From positions 2,464,001 to 2,528,000 of the forward strand of contig OY760074.1 of the NCBI GenBank assembly GCA_963663035.1: a stretch of 64,000 nt of DNA, given 5' to 3'. The notes under the pieces are model-generated. The model was not told the DNA's origin. It searched no databases and saw nothing but the letters and a program-made list of their open reading frames with translations. A program made the translations under genes and the position numbers. Source of the stretch: Acidobacteriota bacterium. Lineage in GTDB: Bacteria > Acidobacteriota > UBA6911 > RPQK01 > JADFOI01. This document shows positions 8,301-54,780 of the stretch, piece after piece. Numbering within the stretch: position 1 is the stretch's first letter; the number at the start of each line of letters is the position of its first letter.

Positions 8301-9479
8301 ATGAAGATCTTCTACGTCTTCTATCATGAGTATGAGCGAATGCCCATACATGCTGTTGAGGTGATCGAGGAGATGAACCGGCAAGGGCAGCAGGTGGTTG
8401 TTGTGACTGCCATTTCACGCCAATATCTGCAAGGACTTGCCTGGCCCAAGAGCATTCAAGTTCATCAGGTTCCGATACTTCATCTCAGGGGTCTTCGAAT
8501 GATCTCCTTCTTTTTGAGTTCGTTTCTATTGATGCCTTACTGGTGCCTGAAGGCATCGCCCGATATTGTGTATGAACGCTTCTCACTCACTTCTCTAGCG
8601 ACTCTGTGGATTACACGCCTTTTAGGTATTGCTCTGGTCGTGGAGGTAAATGGAATCGTCACCGATGAGTTAGCCTTGAGTCAGACTGCCGGTTGGCGTC
8701 TTCACCTTCAGGAGCTGGTTGAGGGTTGGGTGTTTCGAGGGAGTGACCATCTCATCACCGTGACCGAGGGTATACGTCAGTGGGCCGGATCCGATCATTC
8801 GGTGCCGCTTGAGAAAATAGAAACAATCTTCAATGGCACCAATCCTCGCAAATTTAAACCCTTTGAGAAAGGTCTTGCTCGACAAGAATTTGGGCTGGAC
8901 CCGGAGCGGCCTATCGTCGGCTATCTGGGAAGCCTGTACCCCTGGTGTGGTCTGGAACATCTGATTGATGCTTCGCCTATGATTCTTGAAGAAATTCCAG
9001 ATGCACTCTTCCTGATCGGAGGTGGTCAAACGGAGATGAAATGGGAATTTGAGAGAAGGGCGAAGCACCTGGGTGTGGAACAGCACTTTGTCTTTCAGGG
9101 TGAAGTTCCCTGGGATAAGGCCGCGCTCTTTATCAGTACCTTCGATGTTGCAGTGGCCCCCGCCCAATTCACAAAGCGCACAGGAATATCACCTCTGAAG
9201 TTCTATGCCTACCTAGCATGCGAACGCCCCGTGGTCGGAACTGACTTGCAGGGTTTGGGCAACATCCTGGAGGAGAGAAATGTTGGAAAGTCATTTCCCG
9301 TGGGTGAAAAGGAAGAACTGGCGGAGGCTGTGATTCTGCTGCTCCAAGATAGAGAAATGGCGACGAGCATGGGGAAAAGAGGTAGAGAGTTTGTCCTGAA
9401 ATCTCATACTTGGGAGCGAGTGGTTGAGAAGACCATCGAGTTACTCAATAGGTGTCTAAACTCGAAGCGAGGCACTTAG
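8301..9479 (+). CDS. Glycosyltransferase family 4 (paralog B2, tandem duplicate of B1)
   Basis: SPLKFYAYLAC motif; near-identical N-terminus and DNA similarity to 7092-8264. Confidence 0.9.
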   Translation: MKIFYVFYHEYERMPIHAVEVIEEMNRQGQQVVVVTAISRQYLQGLAWPKSIQVHQVPILHLRGLRMISFFLSSFLLMPYWCLKASPDIVYERFSLTSLATLWITRLLGIALVVEVNGIVTDELALSQTAGWRLHLQELVEGWVFRGSDHLITVTEGIRQWAGSDHSVPLEKIETIFNGTNPRKFKPFEKGLARQEFGLDPERPIVGYLGSLYPWCGLEHLIDASPMILEEIPDALFLIGGGQTEMKWEFERRAKHLGVEQHFVFQGEVPWDKAALFISTFDVAVAPAQFTKRTGISPLKFYAYLACERPVVGTDLQGLGNILEERNVGKSFPVGEKEELAEAVILLLQDREMATSMGKRGREFVLKSHTWERVVEKTIELLNRCLNSKRGT

Positions 9480-25493: not shown

Positions 25494-26760
25494 TGACCTT
25501 GCCCCCTAAAACGAGTCCAGTTTGAATGTTAGGATTTCCGGTTTAGGAAGGAGGCAAGGATGGCAGGGAAGCGGTTTAGGGCAGAACAGATCATCATGAA
25601 GCTGCGTGAGGCAGAGGTGGGTCTGGCCCAAGGACAGAGGGTGGGACAGGTGTCGAAGCAGATGGGGGTGAGCGAGCAGACCTACTACCGGTGGCGCAAA
25701 GAGTACGGAGGGCTCCGGTTGGACCAGGCCAAGAGGTTGAAGGTGTTGGAGAAGGAGAATACCCGGTTGAAGAAGCTGGTGGCGGATCTGTCTTTGGACA
25801 AGCAGATCCTGAAGGAAGTGTCCTCGGGAAACTTCTAGGCCCGGCGAACAGGAGACGAGCGGTGATGTGGGTACGAGAGCGATTAGGAGCAGAGCGAGTC
25901 TCCGAACGTCGGGCCTGCCAAGTGCTGGGACAGGTTCGATCGACCCAGCGAAGGGAAAGGCAAATTCCCGATGATGAGGCCCGATTGGTGGCCCGGATGG
26001 TGGAGTTGGCTACGCAATACGGGCGTTATGGCTACCGGCGGGTCACGGCGATACTTCATGGGGAAGGGTGGAAGGTGAATCCTAAGCGGGTGGAGAGGCT
26101 GTGGAGACAAGAAGGGCTGAAAGTCCCGTCCAGACAGCCGAAACGAAGGAGGCTGTGGCTTAATGACGGTTCCTGTGTTCGGTTACGAGCGGCTCGCAAG
26201 AACCACGTCTGGAGCTATGATTTCGTGCATGAACGGACCCATGATGGGCGAGCCTTTCGGCTATTGACGATCCTGGATGAGTACACCAGAGAGTGCCTCG
26301 CCATTGATGTGAAACGGCAGATGAATCACCAAGACGTGTTGGACCGGCTGGCGGAGTTATTCGTTGATCGGGGAGTGCCTGAGTTTATCCGGTCCGATAA
26401 CGGATCGGAGTTTACGGCACAGGCGGTCCGGGACTGGCTGCAGGCTGTTGGGGTAAGGACCTTGTACATCGAGCCGGGCAGCCCCTGGGAGAATGGGTAC
26501 ATTGAGAGTTTCAACGGGAAACTACGGGATGAGCTGCTGAACATGGAGATCTTCGACACGCTGGGGGAAGCCAAGGTGTTGGTAGAACGCTGGCGGAGGG
26601 ATTACAATCAGATCCGGCCTCACAGCGCCTTGGCCTATCGGCCGCCGGCGCCAGAGGCCAAACTACCTAGGTCGCAGGCACTGGATCCAATCCCTTGGAG
26701 TGGACTTCAAATGGTCCCGGGTCTAGCATAGAGGGTGGACTCGTTCGTGGGGGCAGGTCA
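25494..26760 (+). mobile_element. IS3-family insertion sequence, copy 1 (1267 bp; probably IS407 group)
   Basis: IRs TGACCTTGCCCCC / GGGGGCAGGTCA; orfA 25560-25838 (HTH) and orfB to 26731 in the -1 frame ([25 protein letters not shown] core); GGGAAAC at 25826-25832. Confidence 0.97.
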
Positions 26761-26845
26761 GCTGTGCCTCGACGCACACCGAAGGCCACAAACAAGATAT
26801 GAGAATGAAGAAAGAAAGCGTCCTGGCTAAACTATCTCGTACCAT
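26761..26845 (-). pseudogene. Signal-peptide N-terminus cut by the IS (probably the start of wza)
   Basis: GGAGG RBS, MVRDSLARTLSFFILISCLWPSVCVEAQ, then the IS right end. Confidence 0.55.
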
Positions 26846-32597: not shown

Positions 32598-33890
32598 GTG
32601 AAGTCAATGACTGAATTACAACGCTACACAGATTTCAGCATGAATGTCCACCAGAAGGTGGGGGGCGCACGAGCTCCTCTCAGTGCGACCATTGAGCTGA
32701 CACTCCGTTGTCCCTTGACCTGTGCACACTGCTACAACAATCTCCCTATGGGAGACCGCGAGGCACGCTCAGGGGAACTGAGCTACGAAGAACACTGCCG
32801 TATTCTGGATGACATCACGGAAGCCGGCTGTTTCTGGCTTCTTTACACCGGGGGCGAGATCTTCGCGCGCAAGGATTTTCTGGACATCTATACCTACGCG
32901 AAACAAAAAGGACTTCTCATCACCTTGTTTACCAATGGGACTCTCATCACGCCCGAGATCGCAGATTATCTGGTCGAGTGGCGTCCCTTCTCCATCGAGA
33001 TTACGCTTTACGGTCGCACCCGCGAGACCTACGAGAAGCTGACCGGCATTCCAGGCTCCTATGACCGCTGTATGCGAGGGATTCAGCTGCTAATAGAGCG
33101 AAACTTACCGCTTGAGCTCAAGGCCGTCGCGGTGTCCATCACTAAGCATGAGATCTGGGAGATGAAGCGATGGGTGGAGGAAGATTCAGGCTTGAAATTC
33201 AAGTTTGACGCCATGATCAACCCAAGAATTGACTGCTCCCACAGTCCCTTGGCGACTCGGCTGAACCCAGCAGAGGTGGTGGCCCTGGACCTGAAGGATC
33301 CCAAGCGAAAAGCGGAGTGGGTCAAGCACACACAGGCCTCCATTGATCGAGTGCACCTATGGGCCGACAGCGAGGACGTCTACCACTGCGGAGGTGGAGT
33401 CCAGTCTTTTGCCATTGATCCCAGTGGGAAGATGAGCATCTGTGTGCTCTCACACTTTGACACTTACGATCTCCGCACAGGAAGCTTTCAGGAAGGCTGG
33501 GACGGCTTCCTTTCTCAGGTGCGGCACAAGAAGAGGACGAGATTGACCAAGTGTGTGGCCTGTGGGCTGAAAGAGATGTGCGGGATGTGTCCCGCTAACG
33601 GGGAGCTGGAAAATGGCGACCCGGAGGCACCGGTGGATTTCCTTTGCCATGTGGCCCATCTCCGCGCCCACGCCGTCGGTTTGCAGGTTCCCCCTCATGG
33701 GGACTGTGAGTACTGCCAGGATGGAGCAAACTATGAGGATTTAATGCAATCGCTGGCTGCTGTAGAAGAAGGCAGCGCTGCCAGAGAGCTGGCTTTCATC
33801 AAAAACGAGCAAGCCTTCTCTCTTCCCATCCTCACTGAGGAAACTGTTTCTGGAGGCAGCAGCTGCAGCGGCGGCGGCTGTTCCTCGTGA
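32598..33890 (+). CDS. Radical SAM/SPASM peptide maturase
   Basis: CPLTCAHC, TGGEIF and FTNGTLI motifs; SPASM cysteines CGGG...C...CVAC.....CGMCP...C. Confidence 0.93.
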   Translation: MKSMTELQRYTDFSMNVHQKVGGARAPLSATIELTLRCPLTCAHCYNNLPMGDREARSGELSYEEHCRILDDITEAGCFWLLYTGGEIFARKDFLDIYTYAKQKGLLITLFTNGTLITPEIADYLVEWRPFSIEITLYGRTRETYEKLTGIPGSYDRCMRGIQLLIERNLPLELKAVAVSITKHEIWEMKRWVEEDSGLKFKFDAMINPRIDCSHSPLATRLNPAEVVALDLKDPKRKAEWVKHTQASIDRVHLWADSEDVYHCGGGVQSFAIDPSGKMSICVLSHFDTYDLRTGSFQEGWDGFLSQVRHKKRTRLTKCVACGLKEMCGMCPANGELENGDPEAPVDFLCHVAHLRAHAVGLQVPPHGDCEYCQDGANYEDLMQSLAAVEEGSAARELAFIKNEQAFSLPILTEETVSGGSSCSGGGCSS

Positions 33891-33949
33891 GCTTAATTGG
33901 GTTTACCTTGGGAAATGCGAAAGAGAATTCATAAGAGAGGAAATGGTCT

Positions 33950-34129
33950 ATGAAAACGAAGCAAACAGAGGAACAACCGAAGAGACCCTACAAGAAGCCT
34001 GAACTGCTGCAGGTCCCTTTGAGAGCTGAAGAGGCTGTGCTGGGAAACTGCAAGATGTCTAGTTCAAGTGGCCCCGCGCAGGCCACCTGTTCCGGTCCTC
34101 CTTTCCCCTGTTCTGGTGTGGGGTCGTAG
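33950..34129 (+). CDS. 59-aa RiPP precursor peptide (not in the ORF track)
   Basis: GAGAGG RBS; MKTKQTEEQPKRPYKKPELLQVPLRAEEAVLGNCKMSSSSGPAQATCSGPPFPCSGVGS*; YxxPxL leader motif and three Cys. Confidence 0.88.
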   Translation: MKTKQTEEQPKRPYKKPELLQVPLRAEEAVLGNCKMSSSSGPAQATCSGPPFPCSGVGS

Positions 34130-34159
34130 GGAACGGTAGGAAGGGAGCATTCACTCCCA

Positions 34160-34187
34160 CAGAGCCGTGGGCTTTAGCCCATGGGCC
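34160..34187. repeat. Single REP-like hairpin after the precursor gene
   Basis: CAGAGCCGTGGGCTTTAGCCCATGGGCC. Confidence 0.75.
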
Positions 34188-34216
34188 AGAAACGAGTGGA
34201 CCATCCCTCTCCCCGC

Positions 34217-35107
34217 ATGAAGCAAGAAAGCCAATTCTGTCTTGAAGTTGCCGACATCTCCTTGCTGGTCTGCAGCGCTGATCCAACTCTAAAGCTTGAG
34301 ACTCAAGGGGCAATGACAGACTTTCTGGCCGGGGAAACCAAGCCGGATGCCCAGCTATCGGCCGCCTGGCGTGATCTGAGTCAGGTGAACCTGGGACGGA
34401 AGGTCTTCGATTCAGGGGCCCTGTGGCAATTGCACCGCCGCAATGGATCCTATCTTTACAGCTTCACCTCTTCCGCCATCGGTCCAGTCCCCTATAGAGT
34501 GGCCTCATTCGACTCCAGCTTTACCTCCGGAGATCTCTACCTCCACCATCCCTACTTTGAGTCGAAACCGGCACTGTACCCCTTGGAATACCCTCTGGCT
34601 GAACTGTGGTTAATCAATCTACTGGGCCAGGGTCGAGGAGCAGAGCTTCATGGCTGTGGAGTGGTGGACTCTCAAGGGAAAGGCCACCTTTTCGTAGGAC
34701 AGTCGGGCGCTGGGAAAAGTACTATGGCTCGCTTGTGGCAGCCGCAGCCGGGTATCCAGATCCTCAGCGACGACCGAATCGTGCTGCGCAAAGAGGGCAA
34801 AAAGCTTTGGATGCACGGCACCCCCTGGCATGGCGAGGCGGGACTCAGCAGTGCGGCTCGCGCCCCTCTGACTCGGATCTACTTCCTGCAGCACGGGCGA
34901 AAAAGCCAGTTGCTTCCCCAACGGCCAGCTGAGGCTGTTGGAAACCTGTTCACCTGCAGCTTTCCTCCTTTCTACGACCCTACTGCTCTGGACTTCACGC
35001 TGGGCTTTCTTGAGGAGGTGGTCAAGACGGTCCCCTGCTTTGAACTTCAGTTCCTCCCTGAGGAGAGTGTGATCGAACTCATATCCAGACTGAGCAGTGA
35101 TGACTGA
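34217..35107 (+). CDS. HPr-kinase-like P-loop protein (putative peptide kinase)
   Basis: LHGCGVV, GQSGAGKST, ILSDDR and HGTPW motifs; the ATG at 34181 lies inside a REP, so 34217 is preferred. Confidence 0.82.
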   Translation: MKQESQFCLEVADISLLVCSADPTLKLETQGAMTDFLAGETKPDAQLSAAWRDLSQVNLGRKVFDSGALWQLHRRNGSYLYSFTSSAIGPVPYRVASFDSSFTSGDLYLHHPYFESKPALYPLEYPLAELWLINLLGQGRGAELHGCGVVDSQGKGHLFVGQSGAGKSTMARLWQPQPGIQILSDDRIVLRKEGKKLWMHGTPWHGEAGLSSAARAPLTRIYFLQHGRKSQLLPQRPAEAVGNLFTCSFPPFYDPTALDFTLGFLEEVVKTVPCFELQFLPEESVIELISRLSSDD

Positions 35108-35658
35108 GGACTGAGCGACTGACCCCTACAGCGGCGGCGGAACGCGGAAGCCTGGTGGCGGAGTTGCTCACACATTCCTGGCGGCGTGAACCGTCTCCTC
35201 CCAGTCTCTCCCTTGCCGGGCTGGCCCATATTACCCCTTTGCTTCTCAAGACAGACAGCGCTGGGCTGGGCTGGTGGCGAGTTCAGCAGTCCGAGCTGCG
35301 AACATCGGCAGCAGCCCTGAGGCTGAAACATGCCTATATCGCTCATGTGCTCAGTGCTGAACTTCAGGAAAGAGAAATCGTCCAGGCCCTTGGACTGCTG
35401 CGCTCAGCCGGGATTGAGCCACTGCTGGGGAAAGGTTGGGCCATCACCCGGCTCTATCCCAGTGGAGGTCTCCGTTCCTCTATCGATATCGATCTGTGCG
35501 TCCGAAAAGAGCAGCGCTCACTCGCCAAAAGTACCTTAGCGGACCTCGTCGCTGAGGGATGCTGGCTGGATCTCCACACCCAGTTCCGGCCACTTGATCG
35601 ATCTGTGGAGGAGCTCTTTGCTCATTCCCAACTAGCTCGCCTGGGCGAGACAGAGATA
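35100..35658 (+). pseudogene. Nucleotidyltransferase-family protein, truncated by an IS
   Basis: GIEPLLGKGW...LYP..GLR.S.DIDL...LDLH motifs; frame runs into the IS3 left end; 7-bp duplication next to the ATG. Confidence 0.8.
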
Positions 35659-36925
35659 TGACCTTGCCCCCTAAAACGAGTCCAGTTTGAATGTTAGGAT
35701 TTCCGGTTTAGGAAGGAGGCAAGGATGGCAGGGAAGCGGTTTAGGGCAGAACAGATCATCATGAAGCTGCGTGAGGCAGAGGTGGGTCTGGCCCAAGGAC
35801 AGAGGGTGGGACAGGTGTCGAAGCAGATGGGGGTGAGCGAGCAGACCTACTACCGGTGGCGCAAAGAGTACGGAGGGCTCCGGTTGGACCAGGCCAAGAG
35901 GTTGAAGGTGTTGGAGAAGGAGAATACCCGGTTGAAGAAGCTGGTGGCGGATCTGTCTTTGGACAAGCAGATCCTGAAGGAAGTGTCCTCGGGAAACTTC
36001 TAGGCCCGGCGAACAGGAGACGAGCGGTGATGTGGGTACGAGAGCGATTAGGAGCAGAGCGAGTCTCCGAACGTCGGGCCTGCCAAGTGCTGGGACAGGT
36101 TCGATCGACCCAGCGAAGGGAAAGGCAAATTCCCGATGATGAGGCCCGATTGGTGGCCCGGATGGTGGAGTTGGCTACGCAATACGGGCGTTATGGCTAC
36201 CGGCGGGTCACGGCGATACTTCATGGGGAAGGGTGGAAGGTGAATCCTAAGCGGGTGGAGAGGCTGTGGAGACAAGAAGGGCTGAAAGTCCCGTCCAGAC
36301 AGCCGAAACGAAGGAGGCTGTGGCTTAATGACGGTTCCTGTGTTCGGTTACGAGCGGCTCGCAAGAACCACGTCTGGAGCTATGATTTCGTGCATGAACG
36401 GACCCATGATGGGCGAGCCTTTCGGCTATTGACGATCCTGGATGAGTACACCAGAGAGTGCCTCGCCATTGATGTGAAACGGCAGATGAATCACCAAGAC
36501 GTGTTGGACCGGCTGGCGGAGTTATTCGTTGATCGGGGAGTGCCTGAGTTTATCCGGTCCGATAACGGATCGGAGTTTACGGCACAGGCGGTCCGGGACT
36601 GGCTGCAGGCTGTTGGGGTAAGGACCTTGTACATCGAGCCGGGCAGCCCCTGGGAGAATGGGTACATTGAGAGTTTCAACGGGAAACTACGGGATGAGCT
36701 GCTGAACATGGAGATCTTCGACACGCTGGGGGAAGCCAAGGTGTTGGTAGAACGCTGGCGGAGGGATTACAATCAGATCCGGCCTCACAGCGCCTTGGCC
36801 TATCGGCCGCCGGCGCCAGAGGCCAAACTACCTAGGTCGCAGGCACTGGATCCAATCCCTTGGAGTGGACTTCAAATGGTCCCGGGTCTAGCATAGAGGG
36901 TGGACTCGTTCGTGGGGGCAGGTCA
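35659..36925 (+). mobile_element. IS3-family element, copy 2
   Basis: Same IRs and ORFs as copy 1 (orfA 35725-36003, orfB to 36896); no target duplication. Confidence 0.97.
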
Positions 36926-39904: not shown

Positions 39905-39966
39905 GCCTCCTTCCTAAACCGGAAATCCTAACATTCAAACTGGACTCGTTTTAGGGGGCAAGGTCA
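39905..39966 (-). mobile_element. Solo 62-bp left end of the IS3 element
   Basis: Reverse complement of IS bases 1-62 (TGACCTTGCC...GGAGGC), pointing into hsdR. Confidence 0.92.
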
Positions 39967-40283
39967 GAGCATCTCTCTTCGGCGGGCTCGTAGCGTTGGA
40001 TGGTGATCTCGCTTGCACGTGCACGCATCTGCGAGGCGTCGTGCCAGGCCTGCATCCGCAGCAGCATGTCCATGCTCACGTCAAAGGCCTTTTCGATGCG
40101 CAGTGCCATCTCCGGCGATAGCGCGGCGTTGCCGTTCAACAGGTCCGAAAGCGTAGCGCGGCGAACCCCCAGAATCTGGGAGGCCCTCGTAACGTTCAGA
40201 CCTAACTCCTCGATGACTTCCGTGCGGATGAAGTCACCCGGATGGGAAGGGGTCATGTTCACTTTAATGCCATTGGTAGCCAT
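39951..40283 (-). CDS. higA: HigA antitoxin (Xre HTH)
   Basis: HPGDFIR, LGVRRATLSDLLNG and LSPEMALRIEKAF motifs; stop supplied by the IS end. Confidence 0.92.
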   Translation of the reverse strand: MATNGIKVNMTPSHPGDFIRTEVIEELGLNVTRASQILGVRRATLSDLLNGNAALSPEMALRIEKAFDVSMDMLLRMQAWHDASQMRARASEITIQRYEPAEERCSDLAP

Positions 40284-40573
40284 CAGTGGTAATCCTCCAA
40301 GTTCAAGCGGTCGATGTAGCTGTCCTCTTCTTTAAACGTGATCCGCCAATTACCGGAAACCGAAACGCTCCATTCGTCCTGCCTGTCACCTGAGAGCCGG
40401 TGGACGCGCCAGCCGTGCGGCGCATCGGCAATAAACCCGTCGATGTGCTCAGCCAGAATCAACGCCGTCAAAATTTTGCGCACCCGGTCGACCAGATTCT
40501 GCCGTAGGAACCGGGGGTTGTCCTCTTCGATCAGTCGGCGCAATCCCCGGTGGCGGACAGAGCGAACAACCAT
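40283..40573 (-). CDS. higB: HigB toxin (RelE superfamily)
   Basis: HRGLRRL, HRLSGDR and WSVSVSGNWRITF motifs; toxin-first order. Confidence 0.92.
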   Translation of the reverse strand: MVVRSVRHRGLRRLIEEDNPRFLRQNLVDRVRKILTALILAEHIDGFIADAPHGWRVHRLSGDRQDEWSVSVSGNWRITFKEEDSYIDRLNLEDYH

Positions 40574-40657
40574 GCCATGAGTGTACGGTAATACCGTTCA
40601 CGGTGCAAGTGGTTGTGTTGCAACTTTGGCCGACGGGGGCGAGTAAAAGCTGAAACT

Positions 40658-40993
40658 TTAGTACTTTATAGCTTTGGTGAAATCCAACCTGAGCCGAAAC
40701 CCCAAGGCCGATATGATAGCCATCAGGTTATCTATCTTTGGCTTGCTTCGGCTTGAAAGCACGCGGTACAGGTGTTCGCGGTTGAGGCCGGAGCGATTCG
40801 CCAGGGCACCAACACCCCCCTGGGCCTGGGCAACATCGCGCAGGGCCAATAGCAGCCCCTCGGACTCACCACTTGCTTCACACTCATCCAGCGCGACTTC
40901 CAAGTAGGCCCGAGCTTCTTTGGGATCTTTGAGCGCTTTTAGCAGTCCTTCGTCGTAACGGACCGTGTGTTTCAAAGCCTGTTTCTCATTCAT
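40658..40993 (-). CDS. Addiction-module antidote protein (HTH)
   Basis: AYLEVAL, LLLALRDVAQAQGG..LA..SGLNRE.LYR.LS motif. Confidence 0.9.
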   Translation of the reverse strand: MNEKQALKHTVRYDEGLLKALKDPKEARAYLEVALDECEASGESEGLLLALRDVAQAQGGVGALANRSGLNREHLYRVLSSRSKPKIDNLMAIISALGFRLRLDFTKAIKY

Positions 40994-41324
40994 TGCTGCG
41001 GTTCCTCAAGTCTTGCCAATATGCTTTGGCGCGTTCAATGTCGCGACGTTGTGAGCGCTTAGTGCCACCGCAGAGCAATATTACAACCACTCTCTCCAGC
41101 TCCCCATAATACACGCGGTACCCCGGCCCATAGTGGATTCTCAGTTCAAATACGCCTTCGCCTACAGGCTCGGCGTCGCCTCTATTGCCTAGTCGCACCC
41201 GATTGATCCGGTTTCGGATGATCGCTCGTGCTTTTCTATCTCTGAGAGACTGCAACCAATCATCAAAGGGCGCGTTCCCTTGTTGGGAAACATAATTGAG
41301 CACCGTCCTAAGAGATATGTTCAT
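40986..41324 (-). CDS. RelE/ParE-family addiction-module killer protein
   Basis: PFDDWL..LRD, GN.GD..PVGEGV.ELRIHYGPGYRVYY and LLCGG.K..Q..DI motifs. Confidence 0.92.
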   Translation of the reverse strand: MNISLRTVLNYVSQQGNAPFDDWLQSLRDRKARAIIRNRINRVRLGNRGDAEPVGEGVFELRIHYGPGYRVYYGELERVVVILLCGGTKRSQRRDIERAKAYWQDLRNRSNE

Positions 41325-41804: not shown

Positions 41805-43071
41805 TGACCTTGCCCCCTAAAACGAGTCCAGTTTGAATGTTAGGATTTCCGGTTTAGGAAGGAGGCAAGGATGGCAGGGAAGCGGTTTAGGGCAGAACAG
41901 ATCATCATGAAGCTGCGTGAGGCAGAGGTGGGTCTGGCCCAAGGACAGAGGGTGGGACAGGTGTCGAAGCAGATGGGGGTGAGCGAGCAGACCTACTACC
42001 GGTGGCGCAAAGAGTACGGAGGGCTCCGGTTGGACCAGGCCAAGAGGTTGAAGGTGTTGGAGAAGGAGAATACCCGGTTGAAGAAGCTGGTGGCGGATCT
42101 GTCTTTGGACAAGCAGATCCTGAAGGAAGTGTCCTCGGGAAACTTCTAGGCCCGGCGAACAGGAGACGAGCGGTGATGTGGGTACGAGAGCGATTAGGAG
42201 CAGAGCAAGTCTCCGAACGTCGGGCCTGCCAAGTGCTGGGACAGGTTCGATCGACCCAGCGAAGGGAAAGGCAAATTCCCGATGATGAGGCCCGATTGGT
42301 GGCCCGGATGGTGGAGTTGGCTACGCAATACGGGCGTTATGGCTACCGGCGGGTCACGGCGATACTTCATGGGGAAGGGTGGAAGGTGAATCCTAAGCGG
42401 GTGGAGAGGCTGTGGAGACAAGAAGGGCTGAAAGTCCCGTCCAGACAGCCGAAACGAAGGAGGCTGTGGCTTAATGACGGTTCCTGTGTTCGGTTACGAG
42501 CGGCTCGCAAGAACCACGTCTGGAGCTATGATTTCGTGCATGAACGGACCCATGATGGGCGAGCCTTTCGGCTATTGACGATCCTGGATGAGTACACCAG
42601 AGAGTGCCTCGCCATTGATGTGAAACGGCAGATGAATCACCAAGACGTGTTGGACCGGCTGGCGGAGTTATTCGTTGATCGGGGAGTGCCTGAGTTTATC
42701 CGGTCCGATAACGGATCGGAGTTTACGGCACAGGCGGTCCGGGACTGGCTGCAGGCTGTTGGGGTAAGGACCTTGTACATCGAGCCGGGCAGCCCCTGGG
42801 AGAATGGGTACATTGAGAGTTTCAACGGGAAACTACGGGATGAGCTGCTGAACATGGAGATCTTCGACACGCTGGGGGAAGCCAAGGTGTTGGTAGAACG
42901 CTGGCGGAGGGATTACAATCAGATCCGGCCTCACAGCGCCTTGGCCTATCGGCCGCCGGCGCCAGAGGCCAAACTACCTAGGTCGCAGGCACTGGATCCA
43001 ATCCCTTGGAGTGGACTTCAAATGGTCCCGGGTCTAGCATAGAGGGTGGACTCGTTCGTGGGGGCAGGTCA
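41805..43071 (+). mobile_element. IS3-family element, copy 3
   Basis: Same IRs and ORFs; one visible substitution (ERVS to EQVS). Confidence 0.97.
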
Positions 43072-44992: not shown

Positions 44993-45190
44993 CTATCCCC
45001 CCGGCGTCGCGGCCTGGCCCTTGCTCCCCATGAGCATGAGGGCAATGGCAAGCAGTGCAAAGTTGTCGCAGGCTCGGGAAAAGGACTCGGCAGGGATGTT
45101 CATGATGGGACTGCCCACTAAGCCCACAATGACGCCAACGATGAAGGCCACGAAGGCAAGACCAACTAATCCTTTGGCAAGGTTCTCCAT
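44993..45190 (-). CDS. Small two-TM membrane protein
   Basis: Strong RBS AGGAGGAGG; two hydrophobic helices. Confidence 0.7.
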   Translation of the reverse strand: MENLAKGLVGLAFVAFIVGVIVGLVGSPIMNIPAESFSRACDNFALLAIALMLMGSKGQAATPGG

Positions 45191-45285: not shown

Positions 45286-45888
45286 TTATTCCCCGGCCAG
45301 CCTGATTAATTCCCGTTCCAACAGTTGCTGGCTGTATTTGGTTCCGTTGGGCAGGTTGCGGTTCTGCATCCACACAGTTGGCTTGGGCACCGTCCCTTCC
45401 CAGGTGATCTGAGGTTCATAGACCACAAAGATGTCCCAGGCGGCTTCTCCCCTGGGGTAGTTCAACTCGCTGGTGAAGGTCTTGAGGCCGAAGCCCCAGA
45501 GGTCCCAAAAGTGCTCTACCCGGGGGTCTGCCAGGAAAGCCGAGGCCTCTTTGGAGGTCGATTCGTTATCCCTCTGAAGGATGGGGGACCAGAGGGCAAA
45601 GACCTTGAGTTTCGCGTCCGGGTTCCGCTGCAGGACTTCTAAAGTTTCGAGGGCCCCTCGAAGACAATTGGGTCAAGTGGGAGAAAACACCAGGACCAGA
45701 CGAGTACGATCTGCCGTGGCGTTGAAAGCGTTGACGAATTCTTTTCCGTCAAAAGAAAGCGTTGAGACATACTGTTGCTCCCCTGGGAAAACGTCCTGGT
45801 AAGCGACCTCAAGTCTGGATGATGGAAGCTGCCCTGCCTCAAGAGACGGGAAAAACGCCAGCAGGAGTAGCAAAAACGGTAGTCTCAT
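45286..45888 (-). CDS. Secreted thioredoxin-fold selenoprotein (UxxC), 200 aa
   Basis: Signal peptide; LVLVFSPT-TGA-PNC; the frame stays open for 128 codons after TGA 45673-45675 (ADPRVEHFWD, AWDIFVVY). Confidence 0.85.
45646..45662 (-). promoter_or_regulatory. Candidate bacterial SECIS hairpin
   Basis: TTCGAG-GGGCC-CTCGAA beginning 10 nt 3' of the in-frame TGA, with G in the loop. Confidence 0.7.
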
Positions 45889-50310: not shown

Positions 50311-51577
50311 TGACCTGCCCCCACGAACGAGTCCACCCTCTATGCTAGACCCGGGACCATTTGAAGTCCACTCCAAGGGATTGGATCCAGTGCCTGCGAC
50401 CTAGGTAGTTTGGCCTCTGGCGCCGGCGGCCGATAGGCCAAGGCGCTTTGAGGCCGGATCTGATTGTAATCCCTCCGCCAGCGTTCTACCAACACCTTGG
50501 CTTCCCCCAGCGTGTCGAAGATCTCCATGTTCAGCAGCTCATCCCGTAGTTTCCCGTTGAAACTCTCAATGTACCCATTCTCCCAGGGGCTGCCCGGCTC
50601 GATGTACAAGGTCCTTACCCCAACAGCCTGCAGCCAGTCCCGGACCGCCTGTGCCGTAAACTCCGATCCGTTATCGGACCGGATAAACTCAGGCACTCCC
50701 CGATCAACGAATAACTCCGCCAGCCGGTCCAACACGTCTTGGTGATTCATCTGCCGTTTCACATCAATGGCGAGGCACTCTCTGGTGTACTCATCCAGGA
50801 TCGTCAATAGCCGAAAGGCTCGCCCATCATGGGTCCGTTCATGCACGAAATCATAGCTCCAGACGTGGTTCTTGCGAGCCGCTCGTAACCGAACACAGGA
50901 ACCGTCATTAAGCCACAGCCTCCTTCGTTTCGGCTGTCTGGACGGGACTTTCAGCCCTTCTTGTCTCCACAGCCTCTCCACCCGCTTAGGATTCACCTTC
51001 CACCCTTCCCCATGAAGTATCGCCGTGACCCGCCGGTAGCCATAACGCCCGTATTGCGTAGCCAACTCCACCATCCGGGCCACCAATCGGGCCTCATCAT
51101 CGGGAATTTGCCTTTCCCTTCGCTGGGTCGATCGAACCTGTCCCAGCACTTGGCAGGCCCGACGTTCGGAGACTCGCTCTGCTCCTAATCGCTCTCGTAC
51201 CCACATCACCGCTCGTCTCCTGTTCGCCGGGCCTAGAAGTTTCCCGAGGACACTTCCTTCAGGATCTGCTTGTCCAAAGACAGATCCGCCACCAGCTTCT
51301 TCAACCGGGTATTCTCCTTCTCCAACACCTTCAACCTCTTGGCCTGGTCCAACCGGAGCCCTCCGTACTCTTTGCGCCACCGGTAGTAGGTCTGCTCGCT
51401 CACCCCCATCTGCTTCGACACCTGTCCCACCCTCTGTCCTTGGGCCAGACCCACCTCTGCCTCACGCAGCTTCATGATGATCTGTTCTGCCCTAAACCGC
51501 TTCCCTGCCATCCTTGCCTCCTTCCTAAACCGGAAATCCTAACATTCAAACTGGACTCGTTTTAGGGGGCAAGGTCA
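50311..51577 (-). mobile_element. IS3-family element, copy 4 (inverted)
   Basis: Same IRs and ORFs on the minus strand; RPHSAL to RPQSAL substitution. Confidence 0.97.
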
Positions 51578-53610: not shown

Positions 53611-54555
53611 CTACGACACCAAGTCTTGATAGCGCAACCGCTTCCCGTCCATACCCTTGACCATGACCTTCATCTGGTCGATGGTATCAAGCTGGCGCAT
53701 GTTGTGACGCCCTGAGAACTCATCGACATACCGTTGCAGGTGCTTCTCGCTCATGCGATGGTAGGTTCCGTAGTAGCCCCGCTTCAGCATGGCCCAGAAG
53801 GATTCGATGCCATTCGTGTGGGCCTGGCCTTTGACGTACTCCCTGACACTGTGACGGACGGAACTATGCTCAAAATCCAGCCATAGCCGATTGTAACCGC
53901 CGTGGTCGTCCGTGTAGACGGTTGATCCTGGCTTGACACGATCCTGGATAAACCCTTCGAGATTTTCCTGGGTGGTTCCCTGGATGACGGTGGCACTGAC
54001 ACGGTTGGTTTCCCGATCCTTGGCACCAGCGACAGGAGTTTTACCCACGGCCCCACGTCCGGCATTGAGCTTTTTGGAGTTTCGCTTGTTCTTCTCCTTG
54101 CCACCGATGTAGGTTTCGTCCACTTCAACCGGACCCGAGAAAAGTCCCTTATCCTTTGTCCAGGATTCTCTGAGCCTATGGCCGATAAACCAGGCTGTTT
54201 TCTGAGTGATCCCCAGGTCTCGGTGCAGCTTCATGCTGGATACGCCTTTGATTCCAGTGCTGAGTAGGTACATGGCGATGACCCAGGTCTGGAATCCAAG
54301 GTTAGACCCCTCCATAGCGGTTCCTGTCTTGGCACTGAAACGCTTGCGGCAGTCTCGGCATCGGTAGGGCATGGTGGGATGCTTGGCTCCGGTCTGGACA
54401 TTCACCGATCCGCAATGAGGGCAGGCAATCCCATTCGGCCACCGTTGCCCGACAAACCACTTCTCAGCCGTAGAATCATCGGGGAACATCTTGAAGAATG
54501 CTTTTACTGAAAGCCCTTTGCGGTGGCTCTTTCCAGGTTCTTTGTGCTTATCCAT
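53611..54555 (-). CDS. IS1595-family transposase
   Basis: Zn ribbon CPHC...CRDC, HTH (SSMKLHRDLGITQKTAW), VEVDETYIGG, VYTD and HTNGIESFW motifs. Confidence 0.95.
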   Translation of the reverse strand: MDKHKEPGKSHRKGLSVKAFFKMFPDDSTAEKWFVGQRWPNGIACPHCGSVNVQTGAKHPTMPYRCRDCRKRFSAKTGTAMEGSNLGFQTWVIAMYLLSTGIKGVSSMKLHRDLGITQKTAWFIGHRLRESWTKDKGLFSGPVEVDETYIGGKEKNKRNSKKLNAGRGAVGKTPVAGAKDRETNRVSATVIQGTTQENLEGFIQDRVKPGSTVYTDDHGGYNRLWLDFEHSSVRHSVREYVKGQAHTNGIESFWAMLKRGYYGTYHRMSEKHLQRYVDEFSGRHNMRQLDTIDQMKVMVKGMDGKRLRYQDLVS

Positions 54556-54780
54556 GGGTACTATTATAGTATTCAAGGGTGACATTTTTGGGGGGTTCTG
54601 CTGTTCTTTGTAGGAACGTCAGTCCAGGTCAATAAGATGGGAGCGTGCCGTGTGGCAGGAGCCGTTTTAAGGCTCGGCTCCTGCCAGAAAAAGGCTGAGT
54701 GGAAACTGACAAACCCACTCTACCTATTTCGTCTGACAAAGAAGCGGCCCCAAGATTGGCTTGCCTGTAGAAGCCTTTCC

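Follow-up and report, generated by a model that had tools for sequence, protein, structure and literature searches.

Is the short open reading frame (ORF) that ends at an in-frame TGA in the DNA described here a broken gene, or the first part of a longer one that contains selenocysteine (Sec)? The DNA (hereafter the window) is a stretch of 64,000 nucleotides from an Acidobacteriota bacterium (assembly GCA_963663035.1, contig OY760074.1), and the gene in question lies on its minus strand at 45286..45888. The frame 45888..45286 holds 200 codons followed by a terminal TAA; its one internal TGA is codon 72 (45675-45673), in the context LVFSPT-TGA-PNC. A plain ORF list gives a product of only 71 amino acids, ending at SPT. 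An initial annotation made from the letters alone had claimed that the frame continues past that point for 128 codons to a terminal AGE, and that a hairpin begins 10 nt after the TGA; minus-strand translation confirmed the former, and the hairpin, with a stem of 7 bp, was found where it had been placed. A plus-strand reading of the same interval was also tried and was rejected, as it gave stops and no sensible protein. The apparently stop-broken gene is very probably one whole exported redox protein with a single Sec codon, and UGA72 is almost certainly read as Sec (U72). We further favour, with moderate confidence, the full reading that the product belongs to an unnamed family and works as a thiol-disulfide oxidoreductase that is exported and depends on Sec. 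This is carried by the open frame, the interchange of Cys and TGA among relatives, a selenocysteine insertion sequence (SECIS) that tracks the TGA, selection on both halves of the gene, the fold, and the position of the redox motif.

Homologs of the window protein were obtained from a word-based search (21 proteins, 44-63% identity) and from a representative-library search, which gave 1125 matches at E ≤ 0.001 (the top 150 being listed). A total of 170 homologs were fetched; 153 cover the residue-72 site and 17 are halves. According to the initial annotation, homologs should carry Cys or Sec at this column rather than Trp or Arg, and the alignment bore this out, with 148 Cys, 2 Asp, 1 Val, 1 Ser, 1 Trp and no Arg among the 153 proteins. 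Sixteen of the half proteins start beyond the site, and the remaining one, 87% identical to the window protein, stops exactly at SPT. Where the homologs had database names, these were ‘hypothetical protein’, with one ‘protein-disulfide isomerase’. Eleven fragments from more distant subfamilies (P0173, P0151, P0225, P0227, P0229-P0234 and P0237) end at SPT or start in or just past the motif, and these may be Sec forms from beyond the sampled clade.

At the level of the genome, a single scan of the GTDB collection with a C-terminal pattern that excluded the site recovered 75 loci, 73 of them labelled Acidobacteriota, from 61 genomes (by hand count of contig prefixes). The site codon was TGA at 53 loci, TGC at 16, TGT at five, and TGA combined with a one-base frameshift at one (L073); all 75 therefore have TGA or a Cys codon, and TAA, TAG, TGG or an Arg codon was found at none. 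The closest relatives of the window gene (76-81%) come from Acidobacteriota metagenome-assembled genomes and one unclassified metagenome-assembled genome. The family often occurs as several paralogs, and sometimes as Sec and Cys isoforms in one genome. A TGA copy is present in about 46 of the 61 genomes, and four genomes hold both kinds (hand counts): in L055 (7400-8495) the two paralogs stand in tandem, the TGA copy, whose SECIS-type hairpin is intact, lying upstream of the Cys copy, and in CP070717, CAYRCA and CAZGEH they occupy separate loci. Complete genomes among those recovered include CP070717, OZ252114 and OZ240092, which have TGA, and OZ220706, OZ246889 and OY764083, whose loci are all of the Cys type. 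One-base frameshifts inside family genes, probably assembly errors, were seen in L011 (about 8335-8357), L073 (about 8093) and L071.

The databases also hold many half proteins; in a wider set of 252 fetched proteins, 32 consist of the C-terminal half only and three end at SPT. Such halves could indicate that the TGA is a true stop, in a pseudogene or split gene, or that it is a sequencing error or a Trp codon under a changed genetic code; they are, however, also the expected output of gene callers at a Sec codon. A true stop or an error is further contradicted by the recurrence of the same codon across genomes, always as TGA and never as TAA or TAG. The ratio of nonsynonymous to synonymous substitution rates (dN/dS) could be measured for 14 of 17 pairs on the stretch before the TGA, where it ranged from 0.03 to 0.26, and for 12 of 17 on the stretch after it, where it ranged from 0.05 to 0.26. 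Purifying selection thus acts on both halves, and neither is decaying. The first in-frame start codon past the TGA falls at scattered offsets from 7 to 109, which indicates that there is no shared restart and argues against a split gene. In the 54 genes of the TGA type, Trp is encoded by TGG 348 times and TGA is the terminal stop of 20, so that UGA as a Trp codon is excluded. The reading as a stop, error or Trp codon is thus largely refuted, and we regard it as extremely improbable.

The hairpin that follows the TGA (TTCGAGG-GGC-CCTCGAA; 45646..45662, minus strand) begins after a 10-nt spacer and spans +11 to +27, with a 7-bp stem, a GGC loop (45655-45653) and a distance from TGA to loop of 17 nt. 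Published limits for bacterial SECIS (bSECIS) elements, as given in section 5 of PMC13188914, are a loop of 3-9 nt, a stem of 4-16 bp, a G in the first two loop positions, a spacing of 16-37 nt and a minimum free energy ≤ -7.5 kcal/mol. These were applied with a purpose-written script in place of bSECISearch. The window hairpin falls within all of them (-8.6 kcal/mol), as do the hairpins of 50 of the 54 TGA genes (window included) versus 3 of the 21 Cys genes. Its register is rare in the window, where only five of 2413 TGA triplets reach at least 6 of 7 pairs with a G at the loop start, and only the codon-72 TGA reaches 7 of 7.

When the window structure was imposed on the TGA genes, 98.0% of positions were paired (26-78% in slid controls), and when it was imposed on the Cys genes the figure was 46.4%, which equals the shuffle level. 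Compensatory change among the TGA genes affects four of the seven pairs, with 18 cells altered on both sides, a result matched by none of 500 shuffles; these changes alter amino acids too (RGALE, RGASE, QAGSE). Synonymous divergence over the ten SECIS codons was lower than downstream in all 12 measurable pairs (17 tried). A tree was built from 73 rows without the site and SECIS codons, with L011, L071 and L073 omitted for their frameshifts. All 52 TGA rows on it have the hairpin and none of the 21 Cys rows does, with no fewer than seven changes of state. The SECIS comes and goes with the TGA, and the adjacent SECIS that had been proposed is supported by its fit to the bSECIS limits, its covariation and its tracking of the codon.

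A structure model places a thioredoxin-fold domain of the ResA/TlpA type at residues about 40-200 (45289..45771, minus strand), and the assignment draws on Foldseek and conservation as well as on the model. The UxxC redox motif, U72-P-N-C75 (45664..45675, minus strand), lies at the N-terminus of the helix that follows the first core strand (residues 62-68), with U72 at the position of the attacking cysteine. The proposal of a UxxC motif in a thioredoxin fold is therefore upheld by the predicted fold, which has the motif in the canonical place. Conserved residues of the domain include W100, D107, a DxR motif, HFWD, AWD (150-152) and W163/P168/P170.

Some of these features also suit a selenoprotein acting as a peroxidase or small-molecule reductase, similar to GPx, Prx or deiodinase, rather than on protein disulfides. 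GPx8 is among the top Foldseek matches (E 2.4e-5), an invariant Trp-Asp (the AWD motif) precedes the third core strand and many other Trp residues are conserved, and a thiol-peroxidase-like gene directly follows the family gene in L018 and L034. We consider a peroxidase or small-molecule role distinctly unlikely.

Exported thiol-disulfide oxidoreductases of the ResA, TlpA and DsbE (CcmG) kind are similar to the window protein in fold architecture. They differ from it in sequence, with 5-17% identity and no profile match at the cut-off and in having Cys at the first motif position, where the window family has Sec. The window family also has conserved HFWD and AWD motifs of its own; its signal is apparently cleaved, rather than being a membrane anchor or carrying a lipobox. 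The usual motif of this type is WCxxC, for which the window family has SPT-[U/C]xxC instead.

Bacterial UxxC thioredoxin-fold selenoproteins already listed in Table 1 of PMC13188914 include Prx-like (PF00578), Redoxin (PF08534), TlpA-like (cd02966), DsbG-like (NF041057), deiodinase-like (PF00837), GOS_C (NF045500), TsoX (NF045809), SaoT (NF040730) and HUIPC (NF047660) families. The window family shares with them a single Sec in UxxC, Cys homologs, an adjacent bSECIS and a thioredoxin fold, but none of their models matched, the comparison being by domain model and motif rather than by representative sequences. Searches of Pfam, NCBIfam and PDB sequences with the window protein gave no significant match. 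At the cut-offs of PF08534 and PF00578 the window protein gave no match, and the best values among 95 members were E 0.029 (PF08534, four members) and E 0.079 (PF00578, one member). The window protein matches none of the named NCBIfam selenoprotein models (NF041057, NF045500, NF045809, NF040730, NF047660 and others) even at E up to 1; among the matches listed, which cover 25 of 32 families, the best was to NF041057 (E 0.045, 2 of 95 members). The family could not be placed, by domain model or motif, among the 119 families of the 2026 catalogue as given in Table 1 of PMC13188914. No description of it was found in the literature searched, although recent catalogues outside that coverage could hold one. 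We conclude that this selenoprotein family is likely undescribed.

Export is suggested by the N-terminus, where a likely cleavable signal peptide (residues 1-18; 45835..45888, minus strand) was recognised by inspection and hydrophobicity as a short basic start, a Leu/Phe core and an L-E-A end with no lipobox Cys. Residues 1-30 have low predicted local distance difference test (pLDDT) scores in the model. In a scan run without a control or a dedicated predictor, 72 of 76 genes showed a hydrophobic N-terminal stretch (52 of the 54 of TGA type and 20 of the remaining 22). Judged from sequence, the protein is likely exported by way of this signal peptide. Precedent for a signal peptide on a bacterial selenoprotein is provided by SaoC and SaoX of the SAO system, which the available part of 10.1101/2022.07.06.499078 describes as exported, with a metal-linked role that is itself a precedent. 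They belong to unrelated families, are mostly lipoproteins and are encoded in a conserved nine-gene cluster of anaerobes, whereas the window gene stands alone among variable neighbours in Acidobacteriota.

In the mechanism that we propose, SelB and Sec-tRNA would bind the hairpin 3' of UGA72 and insert Sec, as in the established bacterial process. The chain would be exported by its signal peptide and would fold outside the inner membrane as a ResA/TlpA-like domain. There the U72 selenolate would attack a disulfide or other oxidised thiol of an envelope substrate, and C75 would resolve the mixed bond to leave a selenenylsulfide. The enzyme could then be reset either by a small thiol or by a DsbD/CcdA-type electron donor in the membrane. 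U72 and C75 would thus cycle between selenol-thiol and selenenylsulfide while envelope disulfides are reduced or rearranged. The initial annotation had called the product a periplasmic Sec-oxidoreductase of a poorly described family; the Sec codon, the fold and the lack of a named family match agree with this, and the oxidoreductase role is our inference.

Several observations weigh against the reading as a Sec-dependent oxidoreductase. The hairpin is not unusually stable when taken singly, with an energy over the 61-nt region of z = 0.73 (156 of 200 shuffles fold as well) and 122 of 2000 synonymous recodings as stable as the window hairpin. The TGA set itself supplied the fixed-register criterion for the hairpin, and independent pairs on the starred branches number three, all concordant and non-significant (p = 0.25). 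No characterised oxidoreductase is similar in sequence at a significant level, and the invariant Trp151 may sit where thioredoxins usually have their cis-Pro, which would be unusual in a plain disulfide oxidoreductase. No partner, donor or substrate gene shared across the family emerged from the neighbourhood search. Finally, selA, selB, selC and selD were not seen in the 64-kb window or in the flanks, which are small parts of the genomes; a SelA/SelB/SelD motif scan of the window and all flanks, run without a positive control, was blank, and scans for tRNAs and Rfam families were empty for the window and gave no tRNA-Sec in the 54 TGA loci.

The same lack of visible Sec genes would suit an ordinary CxxC protein, in which Cys is placed at UGA through leaky suppression or by a dedicated opal tRNA-Cys that works with a SelB-like factor. 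A tRNA-Cys with a UCA anticodon (selC*) does occur in Desulfobacterales, but Acidobacteria are not listed for it in the available part of the same source (PMC7609411). Acidobacteria with selenoproteins are, on the other hand, on record in the portions available of PMC1794560 (Table 2) and PMC12013277, and the hairpin conforms to the standard bSECIS model. Decoding as Cys is therefore very improbable.

What the proposed Sec oxidoreductase might act on is hinted at by domain fusions, the sole functional pointer beyond general redox chemistry, which as judged from the sequences concerned may indicate metal handling. HMA and/or MerT domains occur in nine of 128 scanned distant homologs (eight HMA, two MerT, one with both), and one distant homolog has a GDCCVxC domain (NF041374, E 2.8e-24). 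The fused members, all distant and of the Cys type, are P0149, P0163, P0093, P0057, P0061, P0110, P0156, P0077, P0104 and P0028; many of the best 150 of the 1125 matches are proteins of about 300 amino acids whose N-terminal domain has no name. A selenoprotein for heavy-metal handling in the envelope could bind Hg or Cu at U/CxxC, or keep the CxxC of MerP/HMA-type carriers reduced. The high affinity of Se for Hg and a part for Sec in metal trafficking are discussed in the available portion of 10.1101/2022.07.06.499078. Nramp, MgtE and ArsR-type genes adjoin three Cys loci. Against such a role, the metal fusions are limited to distant Cys-type relatives (about 28-37% identity) while members of the close clade have one domain only, HMA and Mer domains are missing from all 93 neighbours scanned, and a search of a plasmid collection matched no record. 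We regard metal handling as unlikely. Because distant Cys relatives carry MerT, HMA and GDCCVxC fusions, one may also imagine that exported SPT-UxxC selenoenzymes form an undescribed family throughout this lineage of uncultured Acidobacteriota, with an unusual Trp-lined active site that may capture or reduce Hg or Cu thiolates in the periplasm; this picture is quite unlikely.

A link to the type IV pilus had been suggested by the position of the gene, co-oriented downstream of pilB and pilM. Locally this is real: a pilB-like gene (50036-47124) and pilM (47119-45983) precede the selenoprotein gene in the same orientation, pilM is separated from it by 94 bp, and no promoter-like or terminator-like site was found between them. 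Such an arrangement could point to a dedicated redox factor for pilus assembly, for example for a pilin disulfide. The linkage is not family-wide, however, and offers no functional clue; of the 75 loci, 67 of which extend 1.5 kb or more upstream, just 8 have pilM next to the gene, and these all belong to the starred clade of the window; in other clades the gene stands beside unrelated genes. A pilus role has next to no probability. The neighbour scan, which took in 93 of 161 picked neighbours from 45 loci, found unrelated genes, with no sel, HMA or Mer domains among them; a DsbA-like gene lies on the opposite strand in nine loci. Downstream of the window gene is a hydrophobic ORF of 65 amino acids (44993..45190, minus strand) taken from the ORF list. 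Its AGGAGG site is strong, and an FSRACxNLAL stretch in it is conserved. The ORF gave no Pfam match, and its NCBIfam matches were weak and far below the cut-off. This ORF is possibly co-transcribed with the selenoprotein gene, but homologs of it lie downstream only within the clade of the window (6 of 75 loci), and it is no general partner of the family.

The family is apparently an uncatalogued addition to the roughly 119 known families of prokaryotic selenoproteins. The class to which it belongs, a UxxC thioredoxin fold with a UGA/bSECIS mechanism, is already well known, which limits surprise; within that class, annotation has masked what is probably a new family. Annotation pipelines split its genes, and one cluster of C-terminal halves alone has 278 member sequences. 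The data suggest that Sec is used in about 46 genomes of the Acidobacteriota, and the parts of the literature covered list few selenoproteins for this phylum. They also form a clean natural data set on SECIS evolution, in which the element is compensated in TGA lineages and absent in Cys lineages across at least seven Sec/Cys changes. The four genomes with both isoforms make a comparison of Sec and Cys in the periplasm directly testable.

Elsewhere in the window, four copies of a two-ORF insertion sequence (IS), IS3-like by appearance, are 99.8-100% identical to one another (25494-26762, 35659-36925, 41805-43071 and 50311-51577), and one of them interrupts the methylase ORF of a type I restriction-modification system at about 36888. 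An IS1595-family transposase is encoded at 53611-54585. The region 32598-35661 (plus strand) contains radical SAM, kinase-like and nucleotidyltransferase genes and a Cys/Ser-rich ORF of 59 amino acids (about 33950-34129), whose leader we take to be of the YxxPxL type; it ends at an IS copy and looks like a cluster for ribosomally synthesised and post-translationally modified peptides. Two adjacent small gene pairs at 39951-41324 (minus strand), beside an hsdR-like gene, resemble HigBA/RelE-type toxin-antitoxin systems on inspection. The long region at 209-30426 appears, again by inspection, to be devoted to polysaccharide biosynthesis, with glycosyltransferase-like, two asparagine-synthase-like and sugar dehydratase-like genes.
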